Positions 28,926 through 64,000 of a stretch of 64,000 nucleotides of DNA are shown piece by piece. Numbering within the stretch: the first letter of the stretch is position 1; the number at the start of each line of letters is the position of its first letter. The stretch lies in the IMG/VR virus record IMGVR_UViG_3300046170_000323, one strand, 5' to 3'. The position numbers and the translations under genes were made by a program. The notes beneath the pieces were generated by a model. It saw only the letters and a program-made list of their open reading frames with translations. It was not told the DNA's origin and did no database searches. The stretch is from a virus. Its lineage: Duplodnaviria; Caudoviricetes.

Positions 28926-29069
28926 CCACTTCTAAACTCTATCCACAACTTCTCTTTCTTAGTTAAAGGGGGGCTTGAATGTATATCCCTTATGTGGGAT
29001 GAATATTCTGCCCTCTTTTTCTAATTGTTCTGGTGTTGTCTCAAAGTTGCATATTTCTATCTTTTTCAT
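28910..29069 (-). CDS. Hypothetical protein (~52 aa), +1 at g-run 28968-28973
   Basis: MKKIEICNFET...FRSGQRVT* after repair. Confidence 0.4.
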
Positions 29070-29079
29070 TCTAATATCA

Positions 29080-29689
29080 CTAGTTAGCCAATGGGTTGTC
29101 TAGTGCCCTCTGTAACTTGTTAGTAATGTCAGTTTCTAATGTCGACAGATCACGTTCTACTTTGTTCTCTAAGTCAGTCATACGCTGATCATTAGACGAA
29201 CGAAGCGCATTGGGCCTTTTCATCATAATCGTTCTGAAGAGCATCCCTTTTGTTTTCAAAACGTTCTTCTGCGTTCTGAATGATTTCTCTTACTTCGTTT
29301 TCTTGTTCTCTGAGTTTGTCCTCAATTCTGTCGACAGTTTTTTCAATGCCCAGAATATCATCACGTAACCCTTGTTTAATGTCACGTGTGTATGAAATTG
29401 CCTCTTCGATACGAACTAGGTTCTCATCCATCTTAAGGATGACCTTTTCGTTCTCAGCCGCAATTGCGTCTACATCTATGTTCTGTACGATCTCTTTCAT
29501 GTCAGTATAATCTTTATATACTTCAAATGCACCGTATAACGAACCACCTATCGCACCAAGTAGTGCGAACAATGCCCCGATAGTAGTAGGGGTCATTGTA
29601 ATACCGAAGATTTTCATCTTCTTATTCTTTAATTCTTCAACCTCATTCTCAAATGCTTCAAGACCGTCACCTAAGTCTTTTTCAGCCAT
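29080..29689 (-). CDS. Single-TM coiled-coil protein (~202 aa) ending ALDNPLAN; +1 at ggg 29212-29214
   Basis: TM IGALFALLGAIGGSLYGAF, then ~140-aa heptad region; repair extends ORF 29192-29689. Confidence 0.7.
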
Positions 29690-29992
29690 TTATTTTCCCT
29701 TTGTAGTCTTCCTTTTTTTAGACTCAACCGCATCTAAACGTTTTTCAATATCATCGATTTTCTTAGTGATCTTTGGATACTTCTTTCTCCAAGCGTCTTC
29801 TGGTTGTTCTAACCAAGTCCAACCCCAACGTTCTACTAAGAAGTCCATTGCATTGTCAAACTTCGCATACAACCACAACGCCATACGTGTCGTTGAGAAC
29901 CAAGTTGAAAATGCAAGACCAATAATCGATCCTGCTATTGCAGTATAGATCCATAGTCGATCCCCTGTCATCTGTGTAATCATATCCCACAT
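29690..29992 (-). CDS. Small TM protein with basic tail
   Basis: TM LWIYTAIAGSIIGLAF; Lys-rich C-terminus. Confidence 0.7.
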   Translation of the reverse strand: MWDMITQMTGDRLWIYTAIAGSIIGLAFSTWFSTTRMALWLYAKFDNAMDFLVERWGWTWLEQPEDAWRKKYPKITKKIDDIEKRLDAVESKKRKTTKGK

Positions 29993-30724
29993 TACACTAC
30001 ACCCTTCGTTGCGGCGACATAGTTATCCATGCCGTGATCTTTTGCACCGTCGAGTATTCCTGATTTCCATCCTCTCCACTTATCTTTGATCATCTGCCAC
30101 GTAGTTAACTTACGGATATTACCATAAAAGTTTATATACTGTAACTTACCGTGGTGTTTGTATCCCATAATAAACAATGGAACTTTTGTTACAATGTCGT
30201 TATTGTTTACATATCTCATATGTGGAGTTGAGATGTGTTTAACGAATTTGCGTGTACCAACTCTGGGCGAACCGAAAGTTGTTAACTGTTCTACCTTTAC
30301 TGCTTCCTCTAAACGAGAAGTCGCAATCGTTGCCATTGCTGCACCAAGTGAGTGACCAGTAATATAGATCTTTTTACCTTGGTGTCCTTTAGTCTTACCG
30401 TTATCTCCGCCCCAATGTTTCATAATTGGATTCCAGAGTTTATCAGTCTCACCTCTAAAACCTGAGTGGACTAAACCGTGAGTCATTGCGCCACGTGGAA
30501 TCGCATTAAGATCTGCAAGAACATCTGAAAGTTCTGAGGGTTCTGTTCCTCTAAATGCGAGTACATATTCGTTTTTATTCCAAATTGCGTGGCATTGTGC
30601 ACCACCCTTTTCGAAAAACTTGTGTCCAGTATATCCAAGTTCTTTCATACGTGGTTTTGCTTCTTTACCGTCAAGGTACGCTAAAAGCGGCCAACTTGGC
30701 CATTTTGTGACAAACTTCTGACAT
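29992..30724 (-). CDS. Lipase class 3 (alpha/beta hydrolase), ~243 aa; +1 at aaaa 30683-30686
   Basis: LAFRGTE, VHSGF, ITGHSLGAAMA, TFGSPRVG, DIVTKVP, DH; repaired start MSEVCHKMAKLAALAY with GGAG RBS. Confidence 0.88.
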
Positions 30725-30732
30725 TTACTCTC

Positions 30733-31173
30733 CTAGTCCGTTTCGAACTCTATGCCTCCGCCATTGTTTAATTTGCGTAGTGCATCTAATTCTGCTTGTA
30801 ACTTTAAAACTTCTAATCTTTTTTTCCTCAACTCTAATTCATATAATGAATTGCAGTTGATTCTCTGTTTTGGTTTGTCGAGAGGTATTGTTATCCTTGC
30901 ATACACACCCACGTCTCTCGAACTCTCAAATCCATCCGCACCGTTGTTGCCAAATGGACTCTCATAGTTATCTATAATACCAGTCACGCCAAATTCTAAA
31001 TTAGTAGAACCACCTATTGAGTTCTTACAATCCAAACCATCAGGAGTTCTGATACTGTCTTGTCCATAGGAACCACCTGAGTTGGGAATCGCAAGGTTGA
31101 TACCACTTGTTTCTGATTGTGCAGTTGATGAAATAAACATAATCATTAATGCACTCATAATAAACCGTTTCAT
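30733..31173 (-). CDS. Secreted protein with Cys-bracketed beta-hairpin and C-terminal coiled coil
   Basis: Signal peptide (STAQS/E); LEFGVTG...VGVYARITIPL; two Cys. Confidence 0.75.
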   Translation of the reverse strand: MKRFIMSALMIMFISSTAQSETSGINLAIPNSGGSYGQDSIRTPDGLDCKNSIGGSTNLEFGVTGIIDNYESPFGNNGADGFESSRDVGVYARITIPLDKPKQRINCNSLYELELRKKRLEVLKLQAELDALRKLNNGGGIEFETD

Positions 31174-31566
31174 TTAATATAGCCTTCTCTCTTTGACCTT
31201 GGAACAAATCCTAGACTTAATTGCAGTTCGTTTCAGATTTTCTTTCCTCAGTTTAGACTTCGAACAAATGTACACAACTCTTTTTACATCTCCTCGTTGT
31301 ATATAAATTTCTATTGTCGCACTTGTTAAATATGGTATCTTATATACCTTATATTTAGATACAAATGGGATTGGTTGCCAATCTCCATCAAAAACACCCA
31401 CCTCATAATATTCCACATCACTACGTTTATTAAACATCGTCATGGTGGTAGCATAAAGCCCGTCCATGAAAGATGGTCTAAACTTAGGATATGTTGGCAC
31501 CATTTCGTGTGCGTTGACACTGGTTGTAAAAACCAGTGCCAATAAAATGTATAATGCTTTCTTCAT
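31174..31566 (-). CDS. Secreted protein resembling a fimbrial-chaperone N-terminal Ig domain
   Basis: Signal peptide MKKALYILLALVFTTSVNA; MTMFNK..DVEYYEVGVFD.DWQPIPF pattern; similarity judged by eye. Confidence 0.5.
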   Translation of the reverse strand: MKKALYILLALVFTTSVNAHEMVPTYPKFRPSFMDGLYATTMTMFNKRSDVEYYEVGVFDGDWQPIPFVSKYKVYKIPYLTSATIEIYIQRGDVKRVVYICSKSKLRKENLKRTAIKSRICSKVKERRLY

Positions 31567-31664
31567 AATCTCTTTCTTAAGTATCATCACGGACATCCAC
31601 CTAATCTTCTACATGTTGGACTAGGGTTCACTACTGGTGAAGGGGTTCCGCTAGATCCTCCCTT

Positions 31665-32180
31665 TCATTGAGCAATGCACTCAGCAGTTACAAGCGCAGT
31701 ATAGTTACCGCCTGGAAATGCTTTAGATCCACCCATAGTCGCAACAGATGAAGTCTCAAACCATGTAGATCCAGTTGCAGTCAGATCATAACGATCTGTC
31801 ATTCCAAGTTCTACCTTGTTTGTTTCGTACGATCCCATACCTGTGGCATCAGACATTGCATCTACTTCAGTATCACCAGTCCAAGTTACTACGTCTGGCA
31901 GATTTGGAGATGAACTGAATTCAGTTGGTGGCGTAATTTCTACGTAATATGCATCAGCGAGTGATACGTCCACACGAATACGTGCATCTTCACCACCATC
32001 ATTTGACGCAGTTGTCAATGTGTAGGCATTAGGGTTAGCGTAAGTACCCGCCGTATCTGTCTGGATTATACAACGAGACTGTACTGTTCCGTTGATTGGT
32101 GTGTCTTCAGCCGCCGCATAAGAAACACCAGAAGCTGCTATTGCAGTTAAAAATAAAGGTAGTCTTAGTTGTTTAAACAT
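31665..32180 (-). CDS. Secreted pilin-like (chaperone-usher/Csu-like) protein
   Basis: Signal peptide; INGTVQSRCII at N-terminus; PGGNYTALVTAEC at C-terminus; Thr/Ser/Gly-rich beta character. Confidence 0.5.
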   Translation of the reverse strand: MFKQLRLPLFLTAIAASGVSYAAAEDTPINGTVQSRCIIQTDTAGTYANPNAYTLTTASNDGGEDARIRVDVSLADAYYVEITPPTEFSSSPNLPDVVTWTGDTEVDAMSDATGMGSYETNKVELGMTDRYDLTATGSTWFETSSVATMGGSKAFPGGNYTALVTAECIAQ

Positions 32181-32216: not shown

Positions 32217-33126
32217 TCATCTATTATTATACTGCATGTCAATCATCTGTTCATGCAGCAGTTGTTGTGCTAGTCCATTCCTCAATCCACGTTTATTCTC
32301 TGGTAGTTGTTTATCTAGTAGAACAACCGTATCATTATAATTCCCGCCTGGGATGGATTGGCCATAATATTGATTCATACTGACAGCTAAATTCATCGCA
32401 TCAATTATCTGTGACTTCGCAACCGCCAGAGCAAACATTTCTGATGATCCTGCAGCAGCGAGTGCTTTTTCTAATCTATCGTTTCTTTCCTCGTCTTCTT
32501 TTTCTTTCAACTCGGCTTTTTCTTCTTCAGTTAGTGACTCATCATCTTCATATCTTTTATCATCACCCTCGTAATCTCGTCTATCTGCATCACCACTATT
32601 CAGCGCATCATAAATCTCGTAATCTACTTCTGGCGGTTCCACATAAGGAACTTCATAGTTAGGACAGTTTGGATCAAACTGTGGGTTGTAACATGGTTCA
32701 ACTCTATATGTGTATATCACTCTTGCGTCAACAACTGTGCCTTCGCCCTCAACAGTGATAGAACCGTCACCTATTAAATCTCTGTGTATTCGTCCCAAAG
32801 GAACGACTTTGTTAATTGTTTGTCCAGTAACACTTCCTGGCTTCCATTCGTCTACTTCCCGAAAGATGAACCCTGTTCCGTCTGCAGTTTTATTTGCGAC
32901 AGTAACAGTCACCCATTCTCCAGTCTCTTTTTGCATCTGATAACTGTATATTACGTTATCAACAAAAACACCCTCTGGATCAGGTAACACATTGTTCATC
33001 ACCCAATTCAGATGATTGTCAACAATGGCATTTCCTGTATACCCATAATAAGGTGCAATACTCTCAGAGTAAGAGTAAGAGGGCCAACAGAGAACCACCA
33101 ATGATAGGAGCAGCTTTTCTCAGCAT
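32217..33126 (-). CDS. Secreted protein with beta-rich N-domain and acidic linker (~302 aa); +1 at tttt 33115-33118
   Basis: Repaired start MLRKLLLSLVVLCWPSYSYS (signal peptide); C-terminal LAQQLLHEQMIDMQY. Confidence 0.7.
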
Positions 33127-33631
33127 CTATCGGGCCCATTTCCTTAAGTTCTTTTCTAGTTTCTTCAACGTGAGTTTCCCATCCTAGTTTCGCCGCCTCG
33201 CCTATCAATCCTTGATATGGGCAGGGCGTCCCTGCATTCATCATCGCATCAAACACTAAAGGATCTTGACACATGGTGCTTACCGCCGCCACTTTCATGC
33301 CCATATCATAAAGCGTCTTTGCATTTTTTAGTCGCTTACAGTTTTCTTCAGTGAACGTTCCCCCTGCAGAGATACCTAAGATCTGAGTCTGCACTGCACC
33401 AGCGACACCAATAGTACAGAGGTCACTATTGTTACCTGCACTAAATTGTGGTGAGATTGCTGATGGGGGTGGTTGTTCGATTCTCGTCGTCATGTTACCT
33501 TGTGTAGTAACAGTACTGTCCGTATCGGATCTTGTACATACGTATCCCTCTGGACACGTCACATCTTCCGCTTGAACAGGAACTGATAAACCAAGGTATA
33601 AAACCAACACACCTAGCAAAAGTCTGAACAT
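33064..33631 (-). CDS. Secreted Cys-rich protein with C-terminal membrane anchor (~188 aa)
   Basis: Signal peptide from ATG 33631 (GGAG RBS); PPSAISP, LCTIGVAGAVQTQILGISAG, MCQD, GTPCP; repaired end AAPIIGGSLLALLLLL*. Confidence 0.75.
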
Positions 33632-33689: not shown

Positions 33690-33697
33690 TATTTATA
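33690..33697 (-). promoter_or_regulatory. T4-type late promoter for the secreted-protein operon
   Basis: TATAAATA ~60 nt upstream of ATG 33631. Confidence 0.7.
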
Positions 33698-57809: not shown

Positions 57810-60800
57810 TTATTTATTCAAAATCAACTTTTTGAGTTCTGCGATCTCATTACGCAAAGAAGAGACTTCTTCCTTATATTTATTATCAACTTCTTTGACC
57901 GCTTCGATCAGTAGTGAAGTGATTCGTTCATAATCGACTGTGAGGTACTGTTGATCATGTACCGCAGCCAGTTCTCTTTGTTTATCAAACGTAAGTTTTT
58001 CGAACTCTTCTTTAGCCTCTTTCTTATCCCATTCTTTATCATCACGTTCCTCAAGGAACTCTTTATATGCAATACGTGCTTTCTGCATATTGTAATTGGC
58101 ATTGAAAGGTGCTTCGTTGACTACTTCTGGAAGTACTTCTTCAACCTCTTGTGCGATAACACCAACTTCGTGCATCTTAGTCGGGTGGAAGTCATACTCC
58201 TCTTTAATGTTTTCTACCCAGTCGTACTCAACACCACGAATCTTATGTAGTTTTTCGAGTGCTGCAGTGATAGGTGTTACGTTTTCTTTCAAACGTCCAT
58301 CAGATGCATATGCAACAATGTTACCAGTCGCAGAGACTGCACCGTTTGAACCAGACAACTGAACACGAGCGTCACCGTCTGCAGAAACATAGAAACCCCA
58401 ACCAGACTGACCAGACAAACTAAAGAATGGTGAGTTAGTATGTGCGTAACCATAACCGTAGTGGTTTGACAAACCTGTACCAGATGGACGGTAACTGTAA
58501 CCAATAGAGTAACCAGGCGATGGATATCTATCTGTGTTTAGACCACCAGAGTTAGAACCGTGACGACCAATGAAACCACCACGTGATTCTGCGTTGGTTG
58601 CACCAAAGTGAATACCACCGTTGAGTCTCATTGATGTATCAGACGCAGGGTTCACATAGTATGCAGTACTGTTCAGATCATAGAACAGAGGTGCACGTGA
58701 TGATCTCTCTGCACGCCAGTAACCTGAGTCTGCACGAGCCTCCCATCTACCATTATAGTATAGGTAGGTATAAGAGTTCTCATACATGTAAACTGCCCAC
58801 TCGTTGTTGGCATGTTTAAGTCCAAAGTGTTGACCATCATCATCCCAGTAGATACGTCCACAAGCGGTAGAGTTACTATCCCTAAAGATAAGTTCACCGT
58901 GGTCAGAGTTGTTGGAACGAAGACTGATAGTGTCAGCATCATCGTCATAGATGTCAAATCCATTGTCCCACGAAATGAAGTTCGCAGTGATGTTTGCGAG
59001 ACGAGAAGTCGACGCTGGATCTACATAGTAACTAGTGTTGTTTCTATCATAGAAGAGTGTCGCACGAAGGTCTGTGTTCCAAAGAGTTCTGTTGTTTGTA
59101 CCCAACATATAAGATGCAGTACGAGTTGTACGCTGAGTACCATAGTTAGTTGTACGGAAACCAACTGACCAACCAGAACCCCAGTTTGTAGAGAAACTAC
59201 TATAACCAGTGTGAACATCAACAACTTGAACCTGTGGATATACCCAGTTGTCACCTGTTGAACCAATACAAACCATATGACGAGCACCGTCATCACAGAA
59301 CCTTACGATATATGGGCCATCATCTGAATCACTGATTTGTGTTGCAGAAACGTTTGTCCAACGACCACTTGAATATGCATAACCACCAATTCTAAACTGA
59401 TGCATACGACCAGTATTGTATTCGTAGATATTAACAGTGAAGTGCAACATGGTGTTACCACCACGTCTGTTAGTTGGCAAGTAAATAGTACATGCACCAT
59501 TGACACTTGAAGATGAAGTAGTATATGTACCACCATCTGGTGCAAAGAATCGACGTTCCTGAGAGTCATAGGCGTTGTTAAGTCTATGATAGTTAGAACG
59601 TGAAGTTGAGGCACCGTTAAAGTAATAACCAGTGTTGTTTAGATCATAGAAGATTGGAGAACGTGAAGAACGTTCAACTCTGAACCAACCATTTTCTGTA
59701 CGTGTTTCCCAACGTCCATTATAGTACTGATAGAGGTGTGAGTTTCTATTTGCATACAACATCCACTCATTATCGACATCATTGTAAATACCAACCTGAC
59801 CACTATCTGCAGACATGAAGACGTATTCACCTCTGATCGAATAACCTTCGTAGTTATTACGTCCAGTGCCGTTAACCTGTACTGAACCATAATCGCCTGT
59901 TGGGAAGTCCATATACGAACTAGTACTATTATCATACGCATAATACAAACGGTTTGTACGCAGAGTATTGAAACGTGAAGTCGATGCAGGGTCTGCATAA
60001 TACCCAGTATTGTTTCTATCGTAGAAGATAGGCGAACGAATATCAGAAATGTGATCAAAGTAGTCTGTGTTTAGACGAGCATACTTTGTAGTCTGATACC
60101 ACCAACCCTGCATCTCTGAGTTGTCAGAAGAAGAAAGGTTTGAGTGAAGTTCTACACGACCTTGTAGTCGGATGTAGTCAGAAGATCCTGTACCATCGTT
60201 GTCAACACCGATAACCATTGCAGCGTTTTCACCAGTGTTATTAAAGTCTGGATCAAACGTGATGTAACCGTGGTCAGATGGTGCGTTAACACCAGAACGG
60301 AAGTAGATTGTTACAGGTGCATCGTTACCTGACCAGAATTCTGCGGCAACATTGTTTAGATAGTCAGTACCTGTAACGTCATAAGATGAGTGAGAACCTG
60401 CAGAGTCATTTTGACGTGCTTTAAAGAAGGCCTTACCGTTAAAGTTAACAGTATTGAATATAGATGTTGAAGCAGGGTCAGCGTAATAACCTGTGTTATT
60501 CAAGTCATAATAAATTGGTGCTCGCATTTGACGTTCTGCACGGAAGTATCCAGAATCTGTACGTGCTTCCCAACGACCATTGTAGTAGAAGTATGTGCGA
60601 CCATTACGTTCACCATACCACATCCACTCATTGTCAATATCGTTATAGATACCAACTTGGTTGTTATCTGCAGACATGAAGTTGTAACGGCCAGCAATGT
60701 TGTAACCTTCCCAACCATTCTTACCGCCACCGTTAACCTGTACCGAACCATAATCACTTGTTGGGTAATCTAGGTAATCGTCAGTACTACTATCATAACC

Positions 60801-63800
60801 TGTATACAGTCTGTTGGTACGTAGTGTGTTAAAACGTGAGGTTGACGCAGGGTCTGCATAGTAACCTGTGTTATTTCTGTCGTAGAAGATCGGTGCTCTA
60901 AATGAACCTGATGCGTAAGAGTTACCATCTGCCATTGCTTGGAAGTACCAACCTGCGATACTACCAGTGGCAGCACCGTGTTGACCAACATAGAAACCTG
61001 TTGATCCAGAACTGTTATTGTTATTTGAGTCTAGGTTGATAAACACATCATGATAGGAGTTGATACGAATATCATCAGTTACACCACCACCATTATCACG
61101 AGATGAAATACTGTGATATGTTGAATCGTCACCATAGAATGTGATGAAGTCACCACGATCAGCCATGTCGATTCTATCAACACGAACTGTACCTAGACGA
61201 GACGTACCATTCGGGTTAAGGTAATAACCTGAGTCATTTCTGTCATAGAAAATTTGTGCATAATGGTTTCTATTTGTAAGAACATCACCATCACCACGAA
61301 TGATCATATTCCACTGACCACCTAGACCACCGTCACGGAACGAGATATCTTCACCACCAGATGTGGCAATGATTAGGTGTGCATCATTTGTTTCAGTCGC
61401 CTGAATGTAACCACGCAAACTGCCTGAACTTGTGTAGAAGTGCGCTTGACCACCTGACCAGTATTCTGTCTCGTTAACACGGTTCACGTTCATACGTGAA
61501 GTGGACGCAAAGTCACCGTAGTATCCAGTGTTGTTCACATCATAGAAGATAGGAGCCCGCATAGATCCACGTGCTTCAGAGTAACCTGTGTAGATTACAA
61601 AACGTGAGTAACTGTCGTAAGTCCATCCGTTGACACCAACACCGTAGTGTGGGTTTTCTTGGTTATCAAAGTAACCAATCTGAATAGAGTTCGCCTGATA
61701 GTTTGCAGTACCAATGTTCCAACGACGAACGTTGTTCGAAGAGTTTAGTCTTGAACGGAACGATATAACACCACCGTGAGTCGTGTTTGTGCCCCAAGAA
61801 CTTAGAGTGAAGTGTGGGTACGCATTTTGTGCACCAATTTCAATCTGTGGTCTGTTAGTATCACGTGTCGTTTGTGGTACAGCGTTTGAACCAATTTTCA
61901 AATACGAATCACCAGAACTCAATCGCATATGAACCATACGTGAAGTCGATGCAGGATCTACATAGTAACTTGTGTTATTGTAGTCATAGAAGATTGGTGA
62001 ACGAGTACCTGCGGATTGTGGGAATTCAACTGCGTTGGTGTCACCAATAAAGCTGGCAAGAACTGTACCTTCATTGTACCATGCACTACCAAACGCAGTA
62101 CCACCTCTCCAACGAAGATCCATACGTCCTTGACCAGTATCATTTGCACCCCAAACAAAGTGTTGATCACCAGAAGAGTTGCCTGGCGCACTGTCACTAA
62201 ATTCAAGTGCAGGGTAACCTGCATTCATTATAGAACGAATACGTGCGTTTCCGTTTGACAAAGTTGGTGCAATGTCAATATTGGCAATACGTGATGTCGA
62301 AGCTGGATTCACATAATAGTTTGTGTTATCACGATCATAGAAGATCGAACCACGAACATCGTTTAGGATCGATGTCGATGCCGGATCAAGGTAGAAAGCT
62401 GTATTGTTATTGTCATAGTAACGATCTGCAGTTACGTCACCTGATACGATGATATCATCACCACGTAAACGTCCATGATAGTTTGAACGTTTCAACATGA
62501 TCCCTGCATATTGACGCAACGCACCGCCAGTGTTGTAGTTCATCAATACACGAATACGAACGTAATAACAGTTCGATGGGATTGTTGTGTATCCTCTATA
62601 TGTTTGCCAAGAGGTACTTGTTTGGTTTGAACCACTTACTACGAAGTAAGTTGTACCTGAGTTTGCTGCAATCGGTGATAAGTTTTGATCATAACGTTCA
62701 ATACCATAATAGACAGTACCACCAGAACCAGAGATACGACGAACAGACATTTCACCGTAAAGTTCTTCGCCTGGTTCAACAGGCATGTATGCAGTGTAAA
62801 AGTCACGATATGCAGAAGTTTGTAGAACGTAAGAACCTGCAAATGGGCCAGTAGTTGCACGAACAAATTCTGATGTACTCGTTGTTAAACTATTTTCGTT
62901 TGGTGCAAGTGGATTAATAACTCGTTTGTCAAAATATTCTGTAGCATCAAAGAGAACACTATCTGCCACACCAGAACCATATGCAGGTGAAAGGTTGAGG
63001 TTACCATTACCACCGTTGAGGTTGATCTCTGGTGCAGTTACAGATTTAGCTGCCTTGAAGTTACCTTGACTATCGAAATGGAATCTATCTGCAACACCAT
63101 TAAAGTGAATGATGAATGATGATCTATTTGTGCCATCATAACCATTCCAGTTATCATGCACAATCCAAGGATAGTCACTATTTGCACCACTGTAACGTAA
63201 ACCCAACAAGTATCTGTTGTTGTGATATGCAGACATTGCATAAGTGTTGTTTGCAATCGCACCTTGGTTACCAAACGACACACTGCTCATACGTGAATGA
63301 GATGCAAAGTCTCCGTAATAACCAGTATTATTTCTATCGTAGTAAATTGGTGCACGTGCCTGATTGAGCATGTCAAAGTGATTTGACTGTGTTTGTGCCT
63401 GAATCGTACCATTGTACATAATTTCTGCACGATTGTTCTGGAAGAACTTGATTGCCCATTCGTTGTTGGTGTCGTTGTAGATACCTGCTTCAGATGGCCC
63501 ATTCGCCATGAAGACCCAGTCGTCACGGATTGCATAACCCGCCCAACCATTCTTCGCACCTTCAACTCTGATCGAACCATAATCTCCTGTTGCAACATCA
63601 ATGTAATATGTTGAACCTTCTACTTGGTATCTATTTGCCCTCATCGTATTTGTAATAGATGTAGAAGCTGGATCTAAGTAGAATGCAGTATTATTTGAGT
63701 CATAATAGATTGGTGAATGCATTTGGTTATTCGCAAGGAAGTAACCGTTTTCTGTACGTGCTTGTTCTGTACCGTTGTACATGAAACGTAATGAGTTCTG

Positions 63801-64000
63801 TCTGTCAGCGTACAAGAACCATTGATCATCTACATCGTTGAAAAGACCAGTTCTATTTGCATTGTCATGCATGAATACAGAACGATCACCGATTGAGAAA
63901 CCTTCCCAACCACCACGTGCCTGTCCATCGATTGCAAATGAACCGTAAGTACCATTTGGTGATCTTAGAACCACACCATCATCAAGTTTGATGGTTGCCA
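57810..64000 (-). CDS. Very long modular tail fibre with C-terminal S74-type intramolecular chaperone (5' end outside window)
   Basis: Frame open to window edge; 13 RxPIFYDxNNTxYYxDPASTS repeats; ASDGRLKEN...GVIAQEV...VDYER chaperone motif. Confidence 0.9.
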   Translation of the reverse strand, partial: ATIKLDDGVVLRSPNGTYGSFAIDGQARGGWEGFSIGDRSVFMHDNANRTGLFNDVDDQWFLYADRQNSLRFMYNGTEQARTENGYFLANNQMHSPIYYDSNNTAFYLDPASTSITNTMRANRYQVEGSTYYIDVATGDYGSIRVEGAKNGWAGYAIRDDWVFMANGPSEAGIYNDTNNEWAIKFFQNNRAEIMYNGTIQAQTQSNHFDMLNQARAPIYYDRNNTGYYGDFASHSRMSSVSFGNQGAIANNTYAMSAYHNNRYLLGLRYSGANSDYPWIVHDNWNGYDGTNRSSFIIHFNGVADRFHFDSQGNFKAAKSVTAPEINLNGGNGNLNLSPAYGSGVADSVLFDATEYFDKRVINPLAPNENSLTTSTSEFVRATTGPFAGSYVLQTSAYRDFYTAYMPVEPGEELYGEMSVRRISGSGGTVYYGIERYDQNLSPIAANSGTTYFVVSGSNQTSTSWQTYRGYTTIPSNCYYVRIRVLMNYNTGGALRQYAGIMLKRSNYHGRLRGDDIIVSGDVTADRYYDNNNTAFYLDPASTSILNDVRGSIFYDRDNTNYYVNPASTSRIANIDIAPTLSNGNARIRSIMNAGYPALEFSDSAPGNSSGDQHFVWGANDTGQGRMDLRWRGGTAFGSAWYNEGTVLASFIGDTNAVEFPQSAGTRSPIFYDYNNTSYYVDPASTSRMVHMRLSSGDSYLKIGSNAVPQTTRDTNRPQIEIGAQNAYPHFTLSSWGTNTTHGGVISFRSRLNSSNNVRRWNIGTANYQANSIQIGYFDNQENPHYGVGVNGWTYDSYSRFVIYTGYSEARGSMRAPIFYDVNNTGYYGDFASTSRMNVNRVNETEYWSGGQAHFYTSSGSLRGYIQATETNDAHLIIATSGGEDISFRDGGLGGQWNMIIRGDGDVLTNRNHYAQIFYDRNDSGYYLNPNGTSRLGTVRVDRIDMADRGDFITFYGDDSTYHSISSRDNGGGVTDDIRINSYHDVFINLDSNNNNSSGSTGFYVGQHGAATGSIAGWYFQAMADGNSYASGSFRAPIFYDRNNTGYYADPASTSRFNTLRTNRLYTGYDSSTDDYLDYPTSDYGSVQVNGGGKNGWEGYNIAGRYNFMSADNNQVGIYNDIDNEWMWYGERNGRTYFYYNGRWEARTDSGYFRAERQMRAPIYYDLNNTGYYADPASTSIFNTVNFNGKAFFKARQNDSAGSHSSYDVTGTDYLNNVAAEFWSGNDAPVTIYFRSGVNAPSDHGYITFDPDFNNTGENAAMVIGVDNDGTGSSDYIRLQGRVELHSNLSSSDNSEMQGWWYQTTKYARLNTDYFDHISDIRSPIFYDRNNTGYYADPASTSRFNTLRTNRLYYAYDNSTSSYMDFPTGDYGSVQVNGTGRNNYEGYSIRGEYVFMSADSGQVGIYNDVDNEWMLYANRNSHLYQYYNGRWETRTENGWFRVERSSRSPIFYDLNNTGYYFNGASTSRSNYHRLNNAYDSQERRFFAPDGGTYTTSSSSVNGACTIYLPTNRRGGNTMLHFTVNIYEYNTGRMHQFRIGGYAYSSGRWTNVSATQISDSDDGPYIVRFCDDGARHMVCIGSTGDNWVYPQVQVVDVHTGYSSFSTNWGSGWSVGFRTTNYGTQRTTRTASYMLGTNNRTLWNTDLRATLFYDRNNTSYYVDPASTSRLANITANFISWDNGFDIYDDDADTISLRSNNSDHGELIFRDSNSTACGRIYWDDDGQHFGLKHANNEWAVYMYENSYTYLYYNGRWEARADSGYWRAERSSRAPLFYDLNSTAYYVNPASDTSMRLNGGIHFGATNAESRGGFIGRHGSNSGGLNTDRYPSPGYSIGYSYRPSGTGLSNHYGYGYAHTNSPFFSLSGQSGWGFYVSADGDARVQLSGSNGAVSATGNIVAYASDGRLKENVTPITAALEKLHKIRGVEYDWVENIKEEYDFHPTKMHEVGVIAQEVEEVLPEVVNEAPFNANYNMQKARIAYKEFLEERDDKEWDKKEAKEEFEKLTFDKQRELAAVHDQQYLTVDYERITSLLIEAVKEVDNKYKEEVSSLRNEIAELKKLILNK
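58640..63720 (-). repeat. 13 dispersed ~22-aa linker repeats in the tail fibre
   Basis: Counted in translation: [RM]xPI[FY]YDxNNTxYYxDPASTS variants. Confidence 0.9.

Follow-up and report, generated by a model that had tools for sequence, protein, structure and literature searches.

The stretch of DNA analysed here, referred to as the window, is 64,000 nucleotides long (IMG/VR record IMGVR_UViG_3300046170_000323) and is part of the genome of an uncultured marine T4-like myovirus, encoding a T4-type major head protein, portal, sheath and large terminase. Contigs with the same genes reach approximately 210-220 kb, and the region is present in seawater, estuary and viral metagenome runs from 18 studies. 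Two neighboring genes, here called C and D, are located in an isolated minus-strand operon that runs from 33.7 to 29.1 kb and is flanked by plus-strand blocks. This operon consists of five genes in the order A-B-C-D-E, followed by genes for a class 3 lipase, a small membrane protein and a membrane coiled-coil protein. The proteins A to E all start with Sec-type signal peptides, which in the case of B becomes visible only after correction of an error in the window. Searches with A to E against Pfam, NCBIfam and PDB-sequence profiles returned nothing.

Gene C (31665..32180, minus strand) encodes a 171-amino-acid, predicted exported, pilin-like beta-sandwich, as indicated by its structure model, its fold matches and its match to phrog_25895, the family of gp077 of the Vibrio phage pVp-1. 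The protein has a signal peptide, the motif INGTVQSRCII near the mature N-terminus, the C-terminal end PGGNYTALVTAEC and exactly two cysteines. After the signal peptide, a conserved N-terminal tail of approximately 14 residues (P-I-N-G-T-V-Q-S) leads to Cys37, and the last strand (G-G-N-Y-T-A-L-V-T-A-E-C168) is followed by three residues. In the tail (approximately residues 23-36), P28, I29, G31 and V33 are nearly invariant, and its alternating hydrophobic pattern (I-x-G-x-V-x-S) is kept even in pVp-1. Gene D (31174..31566, minus strand) encodes a 130-amino-acid, predicted exported, single Ig-like domain, an assignment drawn from the structure model, VIA and the match to phrog_25455, the family of pVp-1 gp078. 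The open reading frame of D extends over 31174-31596 (140 amino acids), and the 130-amino-acid form starts from the second Met at 31566. Its signal peptide is typical and ends with VNA before HEMV, giving the mature N-terminus HEMVPTYP, and the protein contains the motifs MTMFNK, DVEYYEVGVFD and DWQPIPF. The initial annotation had described both reading frames with these motifs, together with the signal peptide and the two cysteines of C, accurately; both genes lie on the minus strand.

Many relatives of both proteins are found at E <= 0.01 among 90% clusters, with 1359 for C and 430 for D, nearly all of which are unnamed; the homologs of D are 117-137 amino acids long. Cys37 and Cys168 are invariant in 38 relatives of C, and Cys101 and Cys121, the pair that ties the last two strands of D, in 29 relatives of D. 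Because of these many relatives and the invariant cysteine pairs, C and D are real genes and not chance reading frames. In 29 T4-like relatives, the mature N-terminus HEMVPTYP of D is likewise invariant. When T4-like and T5-like phages are compared, C is best conserved in its first and last strands.

The neighboring genes give the pair its context. Gene A (33064..33631, minus strand) encodes an exported Cys-rich protein of approximately 190-200 amino acids with a hydrophobic C-terminal tail, in which GGS/GGG is followed by a Leu-rich part; it matches phrog_20531 at 2.9e-13 and is syntenic in 7 other loci. This tail recalls a GlyGly-CTERM sorting signal, an identity that was rejected because no NCBIfam model matched. 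Gene B (32217..33126, minus strand) encodes an exported protein of approximately 302 amino acids with a beta-rich N-domain carrying a Cys pair, an acidic linker and a helical C-terminal part. Gene E (30733..31173, minus strand), the start of which abuts the stop of D, encodes a 146-amino-acid exported protein with a conserved Cys-bracketed amphipathic beta-hairpin, a charged C-terminal coiled coil and an F-E-[DN] C-terminus. It matches phrog_37374, the family of pVp-1 gp079, and no named family in Pfam, NCBIfam or the ESM Atlas; judged from these sequence features, E is a candidate outer-membrane part. The class 3 lipase gene (29992..30648, minus strand) matches Pfam Lipase_3 at 4e-21. It is present in two of the related loci (L013 and L014) and absent from the others, and belongs to the cassette only sometimes. 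The same two loci carry the gene for a 100-amino-acid single-pass membrane protein (29690..29992, minus strand). The membrane-anchored coiled-coil protein (29192..29689, minus strand; 165 amino acids as read) has an i-spanin-like layout and only weak matches to MakE and CorA. In T4-like relatives, its gene is placed directly after E or before C, and it is therefore taken to belong to the cassette.

The reading of some of these genes is affected by the quality of the window sequence. Compared with contigs of independent DNA runs, the window has one extra base each at 28968, 29212, 30683 and 33115, and the first three are also missing from a contig of an RNA library. The extra base of the run 33115-33118 is missing in a near-identical relative (L001) and in contigs of the runs X6 and X9, and a 119-kb near relative (G001) agrees. 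The four extra bases are probably homopolymer insertions from assembly. They truncate or shift the hydrophobic tail of A, the signal peptide of B, the N-terminus of the lipase and the C-terminus of the coiled-coil protein, and the frameshift in A and the loss of the signal peptide in B result from the same extra base (33115-33118). Once this base is removed, the end of A and the start of B overlap by approximately 62 nt in two frames (33064-33126), as in L001. Because of the extra base at 30683 and the longer N-terminus in L001, the true start of the lipase probably lies near 30724, and because of that at 29212 the coiled-coil protein probably extends to approximately 29080.

Upstream of gene A, a T4-type late promoter motif, TATAAATA, is present at 33690..33697 on the minus strand, with GGAG and ATG downstream. 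This motif occurs in 8 copies in the window against 2.8 expected, and six of the seven other copies stand just ahead of late genes such as those for the major head and sheath proteins. Since the late-promoter motif stands ahead of gene A, the cassette is presumably expressed late in infection. A, B, D, E and the 5' part of C are covered, at 95-99% likeness, by contigs from a single metatranscriptome library (X19); these contigs are no proof of transcription, and DNA can occur in metatranscriptome libraries.

The order A-B-C-D-E is kept in T4-like relatives down to 27-30% identity, as observed by tblastn in nine related loci. C and D are adjacent in every locus long enough to tell, both in T4-like phages and in pVp-1, and D and E abut or overlap. 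Matches of E in approximately 180 records of T5-like Vibrio phages led to pVp-1, in which gp077-gp078-gp079 are collinear with C-D-E and are all annotated as hypothetical. In pVp-1, this trio is located after tail-fibre-like genes and before the holin and endolysin genes. The T5-like Vibrio phages have only C-D-E and lack A, B and the coiled-coil protein. The order in T4-like phages together with the trio kept in T5-like Vibrio phages therefore identifies C-D-E as the conserved core of the cassette. No match was found with megablast of the 5-kb region or with tblastn of C and D against 50,697 phage records. In a scan of one genome per prokaryote species, C was found in five metagenome-bin contigs only, three from one Rhodobacteraceae bin and one each from a Polaribacter and an archaeal bin. 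B and C are present on each of these contigs, joined by D and E where the length of the contig permits. A cellular origin was rejected for these matches and they are read as misbinned phage DNA, because phage-type cassette genes are present on every contig.

The initial annotation had proposed that C and D form a pilin-like and chaperone-like pair without an usher. This proposal is supported by fold comparison and by the predicted complex of the two proteins, and it finds no support in sequence profiles of PapD_N or of fimbrial families. The structure model of C is a beta-sandwich (pLDDT 87), and in a Foldseek search against the PDB the best rows are almost all chaperone-usher pilins, namely FimF, PapA, the pilin domain of PapG, CfaB, FimG, CsuA/B and Caf1. 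These matches are weak, with E values of 2e-3 to 3e-2 and a best TM of 0.55/0.61 for Caf1. Among AFDB clusters, C matches DUF4402 and SCPU/FanG at E 1e-4 to 3e-3, and in the ESM Atlas it matches DUF4402 with a TM of 0.63 over 150 residues and Csu-type SCPU with a TM of 0.52-0.55. By language-model search, C shares 200 of 256 features, at a similarity of 0.96, with a cluster that has SCPU in 39% of its members. In an exhaustive VIA search, Ig domains of staphylococcal adhesins rank first (Z <= 7.3) and pilins follow at Z 5.3-5.6. The predicted fold of C thus resembles those of Csu/SCPU, DUF4402 and chaperone-usher pilins, with modest similarity scores. At the level of sequence, C has no Pfam match at E <= 1, including SCPU (PF05229), and none in NCBIfam or PDB-sequence profile searches. 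Comparison with 19 E. coli K-12 pilins using hhalign gave 66% over only 25 columns, partly in the signal peptide, which is no usable homology. An exhaustive phmmer search returned 95 representatives, among which inspection revealed no evident link to a bacterial pilus family.

The model of D is one beta-sandwich (pLDDT 76) with a mature part of approximately 110 residues. In VIA, residues 20-130 of D align with residues 1-119 of FimC, SfaE, PapD, SafB and DraB (Z 7.6-8.1), and in the same comparison FN3 and IL-17R domains score equal to the chaperone N-domains. A FimC cluster is matched in the ESM Atlas with a TM of 0.66, and PapD_N is the first named family by language-model features at 0.84, which serves as a lead only. 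No Pfam match was obtained for D at E <= 1 and none in NCBIfam or PDB-sequence profile searches, and the PapD_N profile PF00345 found nothing in G001 at E <= 10. Against eight E. coli K-12 chaperones, hhalign gave a probability of 0.8%, which again is no usable homology. The two-domain, L-shaped layout of these chaperones is absent in D, as the second chaperone domain is missing. D is proposed to be, according to its model, a one-domain relative in shape of the N-domain of PapD, FimC and Caf1M. The earlier description of D as chaperone-like stands as far as the alignment with the FimC and PapD N-domains is concerned; D is a single domain and not a two-domain PapD-like protein, and FN3 and Ig domains tie with the chaperones. 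The Ig-like fold that was to be verified by structure prediction and Foldseek is seen in the models of both C and D.

The interaction between both proteins was predicted using mature C and mature D, each with its own alignment. The combination has an ipSAE of 0.62 (0.76, 0.60 and 0.62 in separate runs) against 0.09 for the best control, a margin of +0.53. Among solved complexes, 58 of 80 attain the mark used for such scores, compared with 2 of 110 among mismatched pairs, a calibration that holds only roughly here because own alignments were used, and a complex resembling solved ones can pass from the memory of the model. At least 93% of the contacts are common to the runs, and the partner pLDDT is at least 84. 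The model thus supports binding between C and D, and is not a demonstration of it. In the modeled interface, residues 34-41 and 161-171 of C meet residues 20-26 and 112-123 of D. C163-170 pairs with D116-123 with indices rising together, which is a parallel pairing of last strand with last strand. C37-39 touches D118-120 and D20-21, so that the N-terminus of D is positioned on the first strand of C, and residues 169-170 in the C-terminal tail of C touch D25-26, D99 and D121-123. In the bacterial complexes PapD-PapK, FimC-FimH and Caf1M-Caf1, the G1 strand of the chaperone is aligned in parallel with the last strand of the subunit, and in FGL systems the N-terminal strand of the chaperone takes part as well. 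The predicted C-D contacts have this donor-strand-complementation geometry, in the parallel register typical of chaperone-subunit complexes.

Further details of the model bear on this geometry. The strand of D also touches core residues of C in other strands (66, 68, 74 and 77-78). A complete fold of C with no groove for a donor strand, the outcome that would have counted against the pilin-like assignment, was not indicated by the model. We infer that, beside Ile120 of D, both sheets of C would be connected by its Cys37-Cys168 bond, which is compatible with a donor-strand arrangement. PapD has a conserved basic pair, Arg8 and Lys112, that anchors the C-terminal carboxylate of the subunit. In the model of the C-D complex, K47, R48 and the neighbors of the basic positions 119, 123 and 125 of D are at the interface near the C-terminal tail of C; K47 and R48 are absent in pVp-1 gp078, and a basic residue at position 125 is kept. 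Residues 23-33 of C lie outside the D interface, though 26-33 are nearly invariant, and this conserved free tail is in keeping with a donor strand that is exchanged from one C subunit to another.

The explanation that we favor, by a little more than even probability, is that C and D form a chaperone-subunit pair specific to phages, one that uses donor-strand complementation and has no usher. In this mechanism, C and D would be exported by Sec late in infection. The disulfide-stapled last strand of D (approximately residues 114-124) would be laid parallel to the last strand of C, and the N-terminal strand of D would be placed against the first strand of C. In this way, D would cover the open hydrophobic cleft of a Csu/SCPU-like C and hold its C-terminal tail. 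The free conserved N-terminal tail of C could replace the strand of D in a neighboring C, giving a fibre. The product would most likely be present in the periplasm or envelope, or be freed by lysis, together with A, B, E and the coiled-coil protein; a lytic phage could simply release a periplasmic product at lysis. B could be a second client of D. Near the C-terminus of B, behind its disordered acidic linker, a conserved PGG.Y motif is present that is like the start of the last strand of C.

Three bacterial systems or families can be compared with this pair. The archaic (sigma) pili, such as CsuA/B-CsuC-CsuD of Acinetobacter and CupE of Pseudomonas (SCPU, PF05229), have subunits of approximately the size of C, with a tail of 12-15 residues ahead of the first Cys and a last strand of G-x-Y followed by alternating hydrophobic residues, as in C. 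C has fold and language-model matches to SCPU clusters, yet no match to the PF05229 HMM. Also as in the cassette, the archaic subunit genes have an adjacent gene for an exported chaperone, the place taken here by the chaperone-like D with its predicted strand donation. However, the disulfide of C joins the first and last strands whereas theirs joins the first two, D has one domain whereas their chaperones have two, and the cassette has no usher or tip adhesin and is found in lytic phages behind a late promoter. In the FGL systems (Caf1M-Caf1 of Yersinia pestis, SafB-SafA and DraB), Caf1 has the best TM for C among solved pilins, and the N-domains of SafB and DraB align with D at Z 7.7-7.8. FGL chaperones have a Cys pair that ties the last two strands, as in D, and the N-terminal and last strands of D both touch C in the model, which is FGL-like. 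In contrast to FGL systems, D has no domain 2 and the cassette no Caf1A-type usher, and sequence similarity is not detectable. The exported bacterial DUF4402 proteins (PF14352) are the best structural match for C among named families, without an HMM match; to our knowledge no function has been assigned to this family, and no paper on DUF4402 was found in a literature search. The true homologs of C-D-E are gp077-gp078-gp079 of pVp-1 (T5-like, Vipunavirus), in which the order, the Cys pairs and the end strands are conserved.

The usher of the chaperone-usher pathway is an outer-membrane protein of approximately 800 amino acids. The earlier observation that the window has no usher is borne out, as no Usher match was found in its large open reading frames of unknown kind (580, 1270 and 2054 amino acids), which are tail-fibre-like or have a Peptidase_S74 domain. 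The Usher profile PF00577 also found nothing in G001 and in the complete genome of pVp-1. Two pVp-1 proteins of 835 and 861 amino acids, encoded ahead of the trio (8715-13821 in L003), were considered as ushers and rejected, as they have no Usher match, and they are unrelated to A and B. These proteins match phage families of unknown function, correspond elsewhere to one PHROG family of 1496 amino acids, and are preceded by a tail-fibre-assembly-like gene (DUF7265); they are likely split side fibres. In the window, the 2054-amino-acid minus-strand protein (57810-63974) has its Peptidase_S74 (endosialidase chaperone) domain at residues 1891-1952; it probably represents a giant tail fibre or spike, the assembly domain of which is self-cleaving.

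Other explanations of the pair have to be weighed against the chaperone-subunit reading. C and D could be ordinary exported Ig-like proteins that are unrelated to the chaperone-usher pathway and that act separately or as a simple periplasmic heterodimer, with possible roles in receptor masking, superinfection exclusion or help in envelope breakdown; the strand-donation geometry would then be generic edge-to-edge pairing by the model. In favor of this, a sequence-profile link to any pilus family is lacking, pilins and chaperones are not ranked above generic Ig and FN3 domains in VIA, and the cassette is located beside lysis genes in pVp-1 and beside the lipase and membrane coiled-coil proteins here. 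Against this, Foldseek searches of the PDB, AFDB and Atlas and the language-model features name a pilin for C and the matching chaperone for D, and the complex stands +0.53 above its controls in the register of chaperone-subunit complexes; this explanation is considered rather doubtful. A more specific proposal is that D is a periplasmic copper binder that uses its N-terminal His as a mono-histidine brace, as in YcnI/CopC, and is functionally unrelated to C. The invariance of the mature HEMVPTYP end in T4-like relatives would agree with this, as would weak fold matches of D to an only-Cu superoxide dismutase (Z 7.9) and an AA10 monooxygenase. However, the pVp-1 homolog gp078 starts with LTLAPMY and lacks the histidine, which weakens the idea; in addition, a second invariant His is absent and the N-terminus of D is positioned on the first strand of C in the complex model, so that copper binding is considered highly improbable.

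The opposite possibility is a true surface pilus, in which D would deliver C to an outer-membrane channel and C would polymerize by donor-strand exchange on the infected cell. The channel could be a Csu-type usher of the host or an oligomeric pore formed by E, with its hairpin and coiled coil. All evidence for a chaperone-subunit pair applies to this explanation too, and it is further favored by the conserved free N-terminal tail of C with its alternating I-G-V-S and by E, which always follows D, is kept as the third gene in T5-like Vibrio phages and has an amphipathic hairpin. However, an usher was found neither in the window nor in G001 or the complete pVp-1 genome, E matches no named family, and late expression in a lytic phage would presumably leave little time for building a surface organelle; we consider a surface pilus quite unlikely. 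A related and bolder extension of the preferred chaperone-subunit reading is an usher-free phage fibre pathway, in which a one-domain chaperone primes a Csu-like subunit that then polymerizes by strand exchange. Polymerization would take place in the periplasm, or through a new oligomeric outer-membrane pore of E that is tied to the inner membrane by the coiled-coil protein and used late in infection. This pathway is put forward as an unlikely but distinctive possibility.

The chaperone-usher machinery is regarded as a bacterial adhesion system, and a literature search found no paper describing parts of it in phages. With its predicted folds and its predicted clasp, the C-D pair appears to be a phage-specific branch of the chaperone-usher pathway that had not been described before, and the cassette of which it forms the core is represented by more than a thousand protein clusters, at 90% identity, in phage DNA from aquatic sources. 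Because cultured T5-like Vibrio phages carry the C-D-E trio, the question is open to bench work. If the pair works as modeled, one Ig domain would suffice for donor-strand complementation and the pathway could run without an usher. If an usher-free fibre pathway does exist, it would be a new branch of pilus biogenesis that is used by a virus. For the phages themselves, the pair would, if this interpretation is true, suggest that abundant ocean phages exert a function at the host envelope late in infection.
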